From Octopus sinensis (taxonomy: Eukaryota), in the NCBI RefSeq assembly GCF_006345805.1, contig NC_043013.1, forward strand, positions 41,912,001 to 41,976,000: DNA of 64,000 nt, read 5' to 3'. The first letter of the stretch is position 1; each line of letters opens with the position of its first letter. Positions 7,867 to 56,441 of this stretch are shown here, in pieces. Made by a program: the position numbers and the translations under genes. Below the pieces are notes generated by a model. The model saw only the letters and a program-made list of their open reading frames with translations, made no database searches and was not told where the DNA came from.

Positions 7867-8695
7867 GGCGGTGAGCTGGCAGAATCGTGAGTACCCGATT
7901 AAAATGCTTTGCGCCATTTTATTCGTCGTTAGGCTTTGAGTTCAAATTCCGAGGAGGTCGACTTTCTCTTTCATCCTTTCAGGGTCAATAAAATAAGTAG
8001 CATTCGAGCACTAGAGTTGATCTAATCGACTTAGCCTCTACGCGAAATAGCTGGTCTTGTGTCAAAATTTAAAACCAATATTTAAAGGAGTATAGGGCAA
8101 CTAGCTGGTAGAATCATTAGCACATCAGTCAAAATGCTTAGCGGCATTTCGTATGTCCTTACGTTCTGAGTTCAAATTCCGCCAAGGTCAATTTTGCTTT
8201 TCATTCTTTCGGAGTCGATAAAATAAATATTAGCTGAACACTGGAGTCGATGTAATCGACTTGCCCCCTCACCGAAATTACTGAAATGCATAGAGGCATT
8301 TCGTCCATCTTCACTTTCTGAGTTCAAATTCAGCCGAAGTCGACTTTGATTTTCATCCTTTCGAGGTCGATAAAATAAGTACCAGTTGATTACTGGGTTC
8401 GATGTAATGGACTTACCCCTTCCTCGAAATTGCTGGCCTTGTACCAAAATTTAAAATCAGTTTTAAAGCAATCTAAGTCAATGAGCTGGTAGAATCGTCA
8501 GCACGCAGAACAAAATGCTTAGCGACATTTCGTCCATCTCTACGTTCTGAGTTCAAAGTCTGCCGAGGTCGACTTTGCCTTTCATCTTTTCGGGATCAAT
8601 GAAATAAGTATCAGTTGAATATCGGGGTCGATGTAATCGACTTTTCCCCTCTCCCTAAAATTGCCTGCCTTGTACCAAAATGTGAAGCCAGTATC
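7867..8695 (+). mobile_element. Tandem cluster of older SINE B copies (three heads, four bodies)
   Basis: Repeated GAGCTGG(C/T)AGAATC heads and CTTTCATCCTTTCGGGGTCGATAAAATAAGTACCAG-like cores, separated by TTTAAAGCAATC(T)AA-like spacers. Confidence 0.85.
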
Positions 8696-11712: not shown

Positions 11713-11832
11713 AGCTGCTTTGAATATTACATTTTTTTTATGTTCGAACGGCTTCTTTTCCTAAATACGCGCCGCTGAAATTGGAATGCATCTAATGTGC
11801 CCACACATCTTTTATTGCGGAAGACAGCTTCT

Positions 11833-12277
11833 TATTTCTTTATTGCCCACAATAAAATACCTATTTCTTTACTACCCACAAGGGGCTAAACACAGAGGGA
11901 ACAAACAAGGACAGACAAACGGATTAAGTCGATTATATCGACCCCAGTGCGTAACTGGTACTTATTTAATCGACCCCGAAAGGATGAAAGGCAAAGTTGA
12001 CCTCGGTGGAATTTGAACTCAGAACGTAGCGGCAGACGAAATACCTATTTCTTTACTACCCACAAGGGGCTAAACACAGAGAGGACAAACAAGGACAGAT
12101 AAACGGATTAAGTCGATTATATCGACCCCAGTGCGTAACTAGTACTTAATTTATCGACCCCGAAAGGATGAAAGGCAAAGTCGACTTCGGCGGAATTTGA
12201 ACTCAGAACGTAGCGGCAGACGAAATACCGCTAAGCATTTCATCCGGTGTCTTTAACGTTTCTGCCAGCTCGCCGCC
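11833..12277 (-). mobile_element. SINE B concatemer (head + two 184-bp units + deleted third unit) with TSD
   Basis: Junctions AATACC|TATTTCTTT at 11861/11862 and 12045/12046. TSD TTGCGGAAGAC(A/G)G(C/T)TTCT at 11815-11832 and 12279-12296. Confidence 0.9.
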
Positions 12278-12664
12278 TTTGCGGAAGACGGTTTCTGGCA
12301 GTTTAAAAGACACGGCTAATATCTCAGTGTCACTGAAACAAGCAGTGTTAGAAAATGTCTCTCGTTTATTTACGTAGATTAACAGGTAACTTTAGCGATC
12401 GATCTACTTGCTTTTAAATTGATCCATGGCTCTGTTATTTCTTCTGATGTCGAATTATCTATAAGTGATTTCCATTCATCCTATGTAACACTTATTGTCA
12501 TAGTTATGGACGGTGCGCCATCAACAGACTTGTTGCTTAACACCTGAAAGAACAGGTGAAGCGTCAAGTAGTTTTTCTAATACTTTAATATGTCATTATG
12601 TGTTACTGTCTTATTCAACAACAAAATTATTGCATGCATTCTCTAAGAATGAAGAATGGGTGAT

Positions 12665-13545
12665 GGTTTCTAATTTTGGCGCAAAGCCAACAATTTTGAG
12701 GGTAAGGAGAAGTCGGTTACAACGATCCAGTCCTCAACTGGTACTTATTTTACATACCCCGAAAGGATGAAAGGCAAAGACCACCACGGCAGCATTTGAC
12801 AGCAGAATGTAAAAGCACGGGTGAAATACCGCTAAGCATTTTGTCCAGCACGTTAACGATTCTTATTCCTTTACTACCCACAAGGGGTTAAACACAGAGA
12901 GGACAAACAAGGACAGACAAACGGATTAAGTCGATTACATCGACTCCAGTGCGCAACTGGTACTTAATTTATCGACCCCGAAAGGATGAAAGGCAAAGTC
13001 GACCTCGGCGGAATTTGAACTCAGAACGTAGCGGTAGACGAAATACCTATTTCTTTATTGCCCACAAGGGGCTAAACACAGAGAGGACAAACAAGGACAG
13101 ATAAACGGATTAAGTCGATTACATCGACTCCAGTGCGCTACTGGTACTTAATTTATCGACCCCGAAAGGATGAAAAGCAAAGTCGACTACGGCGGAATTT
13201 GAACTCAGAACGTAACGGCTAAGCATTTCCCCCGGCGCGCTAACGTTTCTGCCAGCTCGCCGCCTTAAGCACGTTAACGTTTCTGTAGCTTCGCTGAATT
13301 AAGCAATGTGATGCTGGTGATAACAAAAGCTATTAGTTTCAAATTTTGGTACAAGACCAGCAATTTTGGGGGCGGTTAAGTCCCATACATTGTGTTCAGT
13401 GCTTAACTGGTATTTATTTCATTGACCTCAAAAGGATGAAAGACAAAATCGACTGCGGCAGCGTTTGAACTCAGAACGTAAAAAGCCGGAAGAATTGTCA
13501 CTAAACAGTTTGTCCAGCACGATAACGATTCTGGTTCGCCTCTTT
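12665..13545 (-). mobile_element. Young SINE B dimer (12864-13264) nested in an older B copy, followed by a further old copy
   Basis: Junction at 13047/13048. TSD AGCACGTTAACG(A/T)TTCT at 12847-12863 and 13268-13284. Confidence 0.88.
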
Positions 13546-24193: not shown

Positions 24194-24425
24194 TATTTCT
24201 TTACTACCCACAAGGGGCTAAACATAGAGGGGACAAACAAGGACAGACAAACGGATTAAGTCGATTACATCGACCTCCAGTGTGTAACTGGTACTTAATT
24301 TATCGACCCCGAAAGGATGAAAGGCAAAGTCAACCTCGGCGGAATTGGAACTCAGAATGTAACGGCAGACGAAATACGGCTACGCATTTCGCCCGGCGTG
24401 CTAACGATTCTGCCAGCTCGCTGCC
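24194..24425 (-). mobile_element. SINE B monomer with perfect 17-bp TSD
   Basis: TSD TGCTGAAATAGTCTCCT at 24177-24193 and 24430-24446. Confidence 0.92.
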
Positions 24426-48060: not shown

Positions 48061-48275
48061 AAGTGATTCTATGATATTAAAACATTTTACCTGTGAACCA
48101 TCCACATCTCATGAGACAAGGGTTCAAAAGTAATGTATTTATATTCATAGTAATATAGATATTTATATTCATGAATTGTATGTGGCATGTAGTTTCGAAA
48201 CGCTCGTAACTAAAGAATTAAACGTAATACAATAAATTCTACTCTTCGACTTAAAGTATTATATTCCGCGACTAA

Positions 48276-49038
48276 GGCGGCGAGCTAGCAGAAGCGTTAG
48301 CACACCGGGCGAAATGTTTTGCGGTACTTCGTCTGCCGTTACGTTGTGAGTTCAAATTCCGCCGAGGTCGACTTTGCCTTTCATCCTTTCGGGGTCGATA
48401 AATTAAGTACCAGTTACGCACTGGGGTCGATGTAATCGACATAGTACCTATGTCTGTCTTTGTTTGTCCCCTCTATGTTTAGCCCCTTGTGGGTAATAAA
48501 GAAATAGGTATTTCGTCTGCCGTTACGTTCTGAGTTCAAATTCTGCCAAGGTCGACTTTGCCTTTCATCCTTTCGGGGTCGATAAATTAAGTACCAGTTA
48601 CGCACTGGGGTCGATGTAATCGACATAGTACCTATGTCTGTCTTTGTTTGTCCCCTCTATGTTTAGCCCCTTGTGGGTAATAAAGAAATAGGTATTTCGT
48701 CTGGCGTTACGTTCTGAGTTCAAATTCTGCCAAGGTCGACTTTGCCTTTCATCCTTTCGGTGTCGATAAATTAAGTACCAGTTACGCACTGGGGTCGATA
48801 TAATCGTCTTAATCGGTTTGTCTGTCCTTGTTTGTCCTCTTTGTGTTTAGCCCCTTATGGGTAGTAAAGAAATAGGTATTTCGTCTGCCGCTACGTTCTG
48901 AGTTCGAATTCCGCCGAGGTCGGCTTTGCCTTTCATCCTTTCGGGGTTGATAAATTAAGTACCAATTGCGTACTGGGGTCGATCTAATCGACTGACCCCC
49001 TCCCCCAAATTTCTGGCCTTGTGCCTAGAATAGAAAAG
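48276..49038 (+). mobile_element. SINE B tetramer with TSD
   Basis: One head; junctions AAAGAAATA|GGTATTTCG at 48506/7, 48690/1 and 48874/5 (period 184). TSD TT(A/G)TA(T/C)TCCGCGAC(T/C)AA at 48259-48275 and 49040-49056. Confidence 0.92.
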
Positions 49039-49277
49039 CTTGTACTCCGCGACCAATTTATGAGTCCTGGAATATCAGTTTGTATGGACGCTTTCTTTAA
49101 GATAAACCGTCTACTTAGATACAACCTGTTAGCCGGTATTCGCAGGAGTAATGAGTGAAAATATAGCTGAGATTTATTAAGAAATAAATGAAGTTAAAAT
49201 ACTGCACTGAGAATAAAGATTTATACTGCACTGAGAATAAAGATTTATTCAAACTTAAAAACATGATGCAAGGATTT

Positions 49278-53454: not shown

Positions 53455-53992
53455 CTCGCTTTGCAGCCTCGTGGTTTCGGGTTCAAAACCACTGCCCGTT
53501 ACCTTGGGCAAGTCCCTTTTACTGTTGCCCATAACCGACCAATCTTTGCAAGTGAATTTCGTTTACGGAAACTGTATGCAAACCATAAGGCGGCGAGCTG
53601 GCAGAAGCGTTAGAACACCGGGCGAAATGCTTAGCGGTATTTCGTCTGCCGTTACGTTCTGAGTTCAAATTCCGCCGAGGTCGACTTTCCCTTTCATCCT
53701 TTCGGGGTCGATTAAATAAGTACCAGTTACGCACTGGGGTCGATATAATCGACTTAATCCGTTTGTCTGTCCTTGTTTGTCCTTTCTGTATCTAGCCCCT
53801 AGTGGGTAGTAAAGAAATAGGTATTTCGTCTGCTGTTACGTTTTGAGTTCAAATTCCGCCGAGGTCGACTTTGCCTTTCATCCTTTTGGGGTCGGTAAAT
53901 TAAGTACCAGTTACGCACCTTTGTCTGTCCTTGTTTGTCCCCTCTACGTTTAGCCCCTTGTGGGCAATAAAGAAATAGGAAACTGTATGCAA

Positions 53993-54024
<32 letters not shown>

Positions 54025-56210: not shown

Positions 56211-56441
56211 GGCAGCGAGCTGGCAGAAACGTTAGCACGCCGGGCGAAATGCTTAGCAGTATTACGTCTGCCGTTACGTTCTCAGTTCAAATTCCGCCGA
56301 GGTCGACTTTGCCTTTCATCCTTTCGGGGTCGATTAAATAAGTACCAGTTACGCACTGGGGTTGATGTAATCGACTTAATCCGTTTGTCTGTCCTTGTTT
56401 GTCCCCTCTATGTTTAGCCCCCTGTGGGCAATAAAGAAATA
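56211..56441 (+). mobile_element. SINE B monomer with TSD
   Basis: TSD AATAATAT(T/C)CCAC(A/T)TAA at 56193-56209 and 56442-56458. A box GGCAGCGAGCTGGCAGAA, B box AGTTCAAATTCC. Confidence 0.92.

Follow-up and report, generated by a model that had tools for sequence, protein, structure and literature searches.

The L1/Tx1-group element Zepp of Chlorella is said to insert into earlier copies of itself. PMC5203782 places Zepp near L1/Tx1. As described in PMC4494074, the target-specific LINEs of the Tx1 clade include Tx1L, which inserts into Tx1D, Keno, which inserts into U2 genes, and Kibi and Koshi, which insert into microsatellites; the crocodilian SINEU-3 targets Mariner-N4 and forms tandems that keep whole copies with a target-site duplication (TSD) between them. 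According to PMC2718515 and PMC6795142, transcripts of R1 (Drosophila) and R2Ol carry downstream target sequence whose annealing to the target was proposed or shown, off-target sites of R1 and R2 share 4-9 bp with the target, and upstream target sequence in the RNA leads to precise 5′ joins, with tandem arrays arising by reinsertion. Single-head arrays of squamate SINE-derived satellites are ascribed to unequal recombination and become homogeneous (PMC10702118), and the same holds for the TSD-(SINE)n-TSD arrays of the blood clam (PMC11481361). In octopods, OR2 is listed as a CORE SINE of Octopus vulgaris (PMC5804259), and an octopus repeat annotation reports recently active L1-Tx1 and SINE insertions, its passages on these leaving arrays unmentioned (PMC13282606). 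Our literature search returned no description of a SINE that targets itself or of an octopod LINE that targets a SINE; Repbase, Dfam, subscription papers and supplements lay outside the search and may hold one.

We analysed a 64,000-nt stretch of Octopus sinensis DNA (the window, C17:41912001-41976000), 864 kb of contiguous DNA round it as an unbiased sample, 60 exact-junction regions and further loci from pattern searches. SINE columns are numbered on a 231-bp young-family monomer at 56211-56441 (plus strand); another monomer of this family lies at 24194-24425 (minus strand) with a 17-bp TSD. A- and B-box-like motifs are visible in the SINE; ARAGORN returned 0 tRNA genes and Rfam 0 hits. The central body of the SINE presumably resembles CORE. 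The SINE is dispersed, TSD-flanked (TSDs were identified for 43 of 76 young monomers) and of high copy number, with 39,182 and 20,733 genomic matches to two tail patterns. It shares with OR2 a tRNA-like head, a central body and an octopod host; arrays and self-targeting are absent from the account of OR2 in the relevant passages of PMC5804259. The nearest named homologues of one element found here come from Argonauta hians and Octopus bimaculoides. As an earlier note on this DNA had stated, +48 sits at the loop edge of a head hairpin: in the fold, the hairpin spans +33 to +58 (48308-48333 in the largest array of the window, plus strand) and +48 is its last loop base. Columns 43 and 48 covary (TG 112, GC 58, TA 21, others 19), which supports the hairpin itself.

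The window contains GAAATA followed directly by GGTATTT at exactly seven sites, on the plus strand at 48501, 48685, 48869 and 53814 and on the minus strand at 13053, 12051 and 11867, and TRF found a period of 184 at 48323-48992, 11855-12229 and 12864-13218. Pattern count, TRF and TSD inspection bore out the four TSD-bounded arrays, seven junctions and 184-bp period of the earlier note; its description of the insertions needs amending at two: in one array an internal deletion has shortened the second unit (53820-53977), and in another the final 'unit' (11833-11861) is a 29-bp remnant.

In the largest array (48276-49038, plus strand), a single tRNA-like head (SINE 1-47, 48276-48322) with an A-box-like motif and 5 differences from the column majority is followed by four units. 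Unit 1 (SINE 48-231, 48323-48506) comprises a B-box-like motif, the central body and a young LINE-derived tail ending AAAGAAATA. Unit 2 (48507-48690) is a chimera, with the bases of unit 3 at 85 (T) and 89 (A) in its 5′ part and those of unit 1 from 166 onward in its 3′ part. Unit 3 (48691-48874) is young and of another sub-lineage, with 16-20 differences from units 1-2, and unit 4 (48875-49038) belongs to the older family (141G, 144T, 157C and the old tail). The reported heterogeneity was confirmed, with GACATAGTACCTATG in units 1-2, TTAATCGGTTTG in unit 3 and an older tail in unit 4. The TSD is old, its left copy (48259-48275) differing at 3 of 17 bases from the right copy (49040-49056), which directly follows the old tail. 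Contigs of four sequencing runs bridge only the left array edge, in 4 of 4, and break inside the repeat. An old insertion would account for unit 4, the head and the decayed TSD: unit 4 would be the body of the original target copy, and the head would belong to the same insertion, an assignment backed by the population test of head divergence given below. Units 1 and 2 have in common a variant that occurs at just 3 genome sites, two of them in this array, and the chimeric pattern of unit 2 suggests unequal exchange between units 1 and 3, so that this pair would be a local duplication. The history of the array would then comprise two insertions (or one of a dimer) and one local duplication.

Tails of the young family fall into a T and a C type by one tail base. 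The minus-strand array at 11833-12277 consists of a head, two T-tail units and the 29-bp remnant of a C-tail copy, and its TSD (12279-12296 / 11815-11832) starts with AGAA, the class typical of C tails. On the same strand, the dimer at 12864-13264 sits inside an older SINE copy: it is inserted at +15, flanked by its own TSD (13268-13284 / 12847-12863), and the body of the older copy runs on to about 12667. The plus-strand dimer at 53589-53977 has a T-tail unit followed by an internally deleted C-tail unit, within an 18-bp TSD (53567-53584 / 53978-53995) identical at 18 of 18 bases. The window also holds an older tandem of 152-bp period at 8103-8415, of the same head family and without the young tail.

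Genome-wide, the junction TAAAGAAATAGGTATTTCG has 39,661 exact matches in 2.72 Gb against 0 for the reversed control, so the junction is not due to chance. Of 105 young tails in the 864-kb contiguous sample, 52 continue as SINE sequence, 40 of these at +48, 6 at +15 and 6 at other offsets. The single invariant join site of the earlier note thus stands for the majority at +48, and +15 and other positions are used as well; its claims that the junction is programmed and that subfamilies are mixed within arrays both held. Tail type predicts the join site genome-wide with an odds ratio of 93 (among T tails, 30,649 junctions at +48 against 463 at +15; among C tails, 2,063 against 2,911). None of 187 old tails runs on at +48. 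Old-tail copies show another tandem type, SINE-TSD-SINE with 9-22 bp from tail to next full head, in 19 of 187 (the C17 region, L087, L158, L161, L165, L169, L178 and L180). Most arrays have 2-4 units and a few loci have 8-10, which differs from the long homogeneous arrays of SINE-derived satellites (at least 4 middle units). Arrays with 6-10 junctions (G000:C1:12138972-12140265, C1:30020857-30022548 and C1:15416806-15417757) are candidates for incipient SINE-derived satellites. Like the squamate and clam arrays of PMC10702118 and PMC11481361, octopus arrays have one leading unit with the SINE terminus and then truncated units, and the clam array is also TSD-flanked; in contrast to those accounts, octopus arrays are mostly of 2-4 heterogeneous, age-ordered units at tens of thousands of dispersed loci.

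Insertions into other DNA showed the same site preferences. Where tails end in non-SINE DNA, the flank begins with GG in 17 of 25 T tails (two or three of which are missed SINE continuations) and with AG in 14 of 27 C tails. Among insertions into unique DNA, a GGTA start of the left TSD copy was seen in 9 of 30 with a T tail versus 1 of 22 with a C tail, the genomic frequency of GGTA being 0.26%, and an AGAA start in 1 of 30 and 4 of 22, respectively. As these starts lie in left TSD copies, the flank bases belong to the target. The 43G/48C sub-lineage was enriched at targets starting with TA (20 of 26, versus 9 of 28 at GG targets). Beyond the window, at contiguous-DNA offsets 76548 and 140395, two C-tail copies occupy the same position (AGAAACTGAAA) of another abundant repeat, which suggests further favoured targets.

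Nested copies identify +48 as a DNA target. A genome pattern search for a head, a short spacer and a second full head gave 80 exact matches at 54 loci. At 7 or more of 23 inspected double-head loci, the bases from +48 onward are present twice, once on each flank of the inner element, and the left and right TSD copies share locus-private variants, so +48 served as a target in DNA at these full-length nests. Such nests are rare: a script found one among 29 full-head arrays of the contiguous DNA, to which the +15 nest at 12864-13264 was added by eye. The 30 loci picked for double heads were excluded from statistics. Heads with TSDs also form tandem repeats of 65-76 bp in up to 10 copies (L046, L048, L053, L054, L058, L070, G000:C18:40398939, C3430 and C10988).

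The age order of units was measured by divergence, counted as differences from the commonest base of each column, with 21 polymorphic columns skipped in most tests and 15 in the contiguous-subset and monomer test. Of 70 arrays, 51 had a last unit with higher divergence than unit 1 and 12 had one with lower divergence (p = 6e-8). The last unit was the older one in 14 versus 1 of 21 arrays from contiguous DNA, in 37 versus 11 of 49 from other loci, many of them selected for the exact junction, and in 22 versus 5 of 32 that end in a young tail. From first to last unit, divergence was 0.044/0.079 in 2-mers, 0.039/0.051/0.068 in 3-mers and 0.018/0.045/0.044/0.069 in 4-mers. An old-tail unit terminates 47 of 81 full-head arrays. 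Arrays joined at +15 gave a non-significant order (9 versus 5 of 16, p = 0.20). Head divergence correlated with that of the last unit (rho 0.43, p = 2e-4) versus a rho of 0.04 with unit 1; in the contiguous sample alone the correlation with the last unit was non-significant (rho 0.28, p = 0.22, n = 21), and head and body are correlated in monomers (rho 0.33). Array heads were 9.0% diverged, between young (5.9%) and old (11.8%) monomers, and their divergence was unimodal, with no separate old and new head classes seen in arrays.

Diagnostic bases placed the boundary between old and new sequence close to the target. At three diagnostic columns, old bases are nearly absent from unit 1 (1 of 32, 3 of 33 and 1 of 34) and frequent in the last unit (25, 29 and 26 of 35). 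Unit 1 is young from +49 onward, almost without old bases, which puts the exchange point near the target. Unit 1 and the last unit have variants in common at 61-65 (22 of 80 versus 0.16 shuffled) and 66-80 (5 of 50 versus 0.03 shuffled) and none at 111-140; the sharing fades with distance from +48. In contiguous DNA, old terminal units differ at only 4 of 88 bases in 49-56 versus 23 of 152 in old monomers, a conservation that selection of targets by their match, or their overwriting, would produce. These results indicate that arrays would grow over time from the 5′ side.

A LINE shares both the tail and the target. The element L136:1-4607 (G000:C1:829801-834407) heads a four-unit SINE array, and its last 48 nt match the young SINE tail at 41 of 48 columns, the closest of the LINE ends; the relatives L155 and L177 also match. 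A pattern fixed on LINE letters plus 17 free bases gave 121 matches against 0 for the control. Among the matches listed, a hand count found that 98 of 100 LINE copies continue straight into SINE +48 sequence. At these listed junctions about half vary in 15 SINE bases and 7 of 100 vary in 24 free LINE bases, which indicates that the SINE part comes from different copies. The LINE copies would interrupt SINE heads at +48. Contigs mapped to the LINE included no SINE-head loose ends among 24 of more than 1,000 and carry no information about the sequence 5′ of its copies; coverage of the LINE by one run, presumed to be RNA, does not show that it is transcribed. These data suggest recent activity of the LINE and an almost exclusive use of a dispersed SINE as its target.

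The L136 LINE encodes zf-CCHC (ORF1), Exo_endo_phos and RVT_1 domains, an L1-like endonuclease-RT layout with APE and RT in ORF2, and the best PDB match of its relative P0008 is human L1 ORF2p (E = 9e-69). A zf-RVT domain occurs in L177 and other relatives, and none was found in the one C-terminal frame of L136 that was scanned. The LINE would be classed as Tx1 by this domain layout and by its specificity for one position of a multicopy repeat. The related family of L177:1-1796, L264, L168 and L190, with at least 40 copies 99% alike, is followed by (TATC)n at 12 of 12 examined 3′ ends and represents a microsatellite-targeting sister. L177, whose tail match scored 51.5 against a shuffle maximum of 34, was considered as partner of the SINE and placed second, since the L136 end is closer and lies at +48. 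A partner of the R4/Dong or RTE type was rejected because the RLE-type ORFs in the examined DNA terminate in different 3′ sequences. The shared 3′ end also occurs, in variant form, in further decayed LINE families at L155:7600-9060, contiguous 824884-823700 (C17) and L066:386-1450; of these, the L155 end matches the SINE tail over a greater length and, judged by that, may be nearer to its source. As in the Tx1 LINEs and SINEU-3 of PMC4494074, an APE-RT element of the L1/Tx1 group occupies a single site within a multicopy repeat, a SINE dependent on it uses the same target, and successive insertions would produce tandem copies. In contrast to those LINEs, the octopus target is the head of the very SINE that has the tail of the LINE, which makes the SINE its own target; in contrast to SINEU-3, the duplicated head is lost in most octopus arrays.

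We therefore propose, with a probability of about 0.7, that arrays grow mainly by target-primed self-insertion of young SINEs at +48 of older copies through the LINE machinery, a new form of target-specific, Tx1/R1-like retrotransposition in which a SINE homes into itself. The route would start from the young LINE (APE endonuclease, RT and CCHC ORF1) that ends on SINE +48 and whose 3′ end the SINE tail matches. Its protein would nick a genomic SINE head at +48, the SINE RNA would be reverse-transcribed from its tail, and bases read through past the tail would probably pair with the primer strand. Such pairing would explain why each sub-lineage has its own target class (GGTA at +48, AGAA at +15, TA). 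Because the cDNA is homologous to the head of the target, the staggered top-strand end could then anneal to it instead of joining at +1, leaving the old head, a new unit 48-231 and the old unit inside the old TSD. Rare failure of this step would leave a double-headed nest with its TSD, as found at the loci above. Unequal exchange would later add a minority of near-identical units, a pattern present at 48276-49038. Several observations weigh against this route: the tail of the LINE is of the C type while C-tail SINEs prefer +15, +15 arrays gave a non-significant age order, array heads are intermediate in divergence, and 8 of 119 arrays have neither an upstream head nor a TSD. Zepp differs from this case in being autonomous and telomere-associated; the octopus element is a non-autonomous SINE whose second head is lost homologously. 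R1 and R2, in the accounts of PMC2718515 and PMC6795142, are autonomous and target 28S rDNA, whereas the octopus element is a non-coding SINE with a dispersed target of its own kind and with sub-lineage-specific target classes, in which read-through pairing is inferred only.

Bases read through past the tail probably contribute to the choice of site. The class of target goes with SINE variants distant from the tail, TA and GG flanks differing at 43, 48, 125, 128 and 157 (p 0.002-0.016, 14 columns tested), and C-tail SINEs favour +15 although their tail end is identical to that of the +48 LINE, itself of C type. The base at +48 is also donor-specific, G in 38 and C in 0 of 40 SINE junctions and C in 66, G in 32 and T in 2 of the 100 LINE matches listed (hand count), which could reflect read-through or true donor ends that include this base. 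Endonucleases might instead choose alone, several related LINE families each having a target of their own (SINE +48, TATC repeats, perhaps +15) and read-through RNA playing no part. The sister family in TATC repeats agrees with this, as do the mainly endonuclease-determined target choice of the Tx1 group in PMC4494074 and the non-significant test of left versus right TSD copies for RNA-templated bases (7 versus 5 and 3 versus 1; scoring against any canonical start, done after the fact by hand, gave 9 versus 2 and is not relied on). It leaves unexplained the far variants and the +15 preference of C tails, and we regard it as a serious possibility at clearly less than even odds; it can hold together with self-insertion, and the two probabilities largely overlap. 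A closed loop combining both elements, which we hold tentatively and somewhat short of even odds, would have the LINE homing into a tRNA-like SINE head and the SINE, having captured the LINE tail, homing into itself between the promoter boxes, so that a new body comes under an old head; target choice would be inherited through the read-through flank of the master, carried by RNA and reprogrammable by few 3′ bases.

Three other origins of the arrays were weighed against self-insertion. The earlier note had proposed that the tail of the RNA may pair with a head arm on another, or the same, RNA molecule, with RT template jumping, ligation or circularisation to follow at +48. GAAATA is indeed complementary to TATTTC at +50-55 by the loop edge, and jumps onto LINE RNA could yield LINE-SINE joins with varied SINE parts. 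In the folded monomer, however, 50-55 pairs with the left arm of the head at a probability of about 1 and with the tail at 0, the hexamer duplex reaches only -2.0 kcal/mol, and the same AAAGAAATA end joins at +15, without a complement, in the 2,911 exact C-tail cases. A template switch of the U6-L1 type or an RNA concatemer would give parts of one age inside a young TSD, and we found a fixed age order, old TSDs and double-headed nests with TSDs; the LINE uses +48 too, and nearly every LINE copy would have to start on SINE RNA. An Rfam scan of 48200-49100 at E up to 10 gave 0 matches to a ribozyme or other family, including any self-cleaving ribozyme per unit of the retrozyme type among the described ribozymes it covers. 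The pairing model is thus very unlikely, and the junction palindrome may be coincidence or have mattered once, at a founding event. Events at the DNA level (slippage, unequal crossover, or 184-bp circles reintegrated through homologous recombination) would account for unit 2 of the largest array, the 65-bp head repeats and the few similar neighbours (mutual closest relatives in 8 of 175 pairs; within 4% in 20 of 175). With so few mutual closest relatives, simple local duplication is insufficient, as the earlier note held, and is not the main source of the arrays: the median difference between adjacent units is 10.9%, versus 12.0% in random pairs, and the 25 closest unit pairs include no dimers. 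Crossovers along the unit would also place old bases in unit 1, where they are not seen, and GGTA-starting TSDs in unique DNA and the LINE at +48 would stay unexplained. The distribution of old bases rules out DNA-level amplification as the main route, and that it made most units is highly improbable.

The remaining rival holds that whole multimers are read through from array masters and retrotransposed in one step, self-insertion having only founded the masters. In its favour are multi-head composites that recur, with one and the same 65-bp head repeat, at several differently flanked loci, a trimer between private TSD copies (L062), the 8 of 119 arrays without any upstream head (a TSD search round these 8 found none) and the +15 arrays, whose units share variants along their whole length. 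Yet this route predicts young TSDs, and array TSDs are older, with perfect copies in 10 of 39 arrays versus 23 of 43 young monomers (p = 0.013). It also predicts shared terminal units, and terminal old units are mutually distant, with a median nearest-neighbour distance of 9.9% (minimum 5%, n = 47) versus 10.9% in old monomers, and are exactly as diverged as old monomers (8.8% versus 8.8%). Multimer copying probably contributes, and we consider it unlikely as the principal source.

Growth by self-insertion offers retrotransposition, rather than recombination, as a testable route to single-head SINE arrays, with about 40,000 junctions in one genome, and the same route bears on the shuffling of heads and bodies in SINE evolution. 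A dispersed SINE would be a natural, harmless landing site for a LINE. Because lineages with a common tail end differ in the sites they use, this system would allow the part played by the endonuclease to be told apart from that of RNA-target pairing, and the order of units would date insertions locus by locus.
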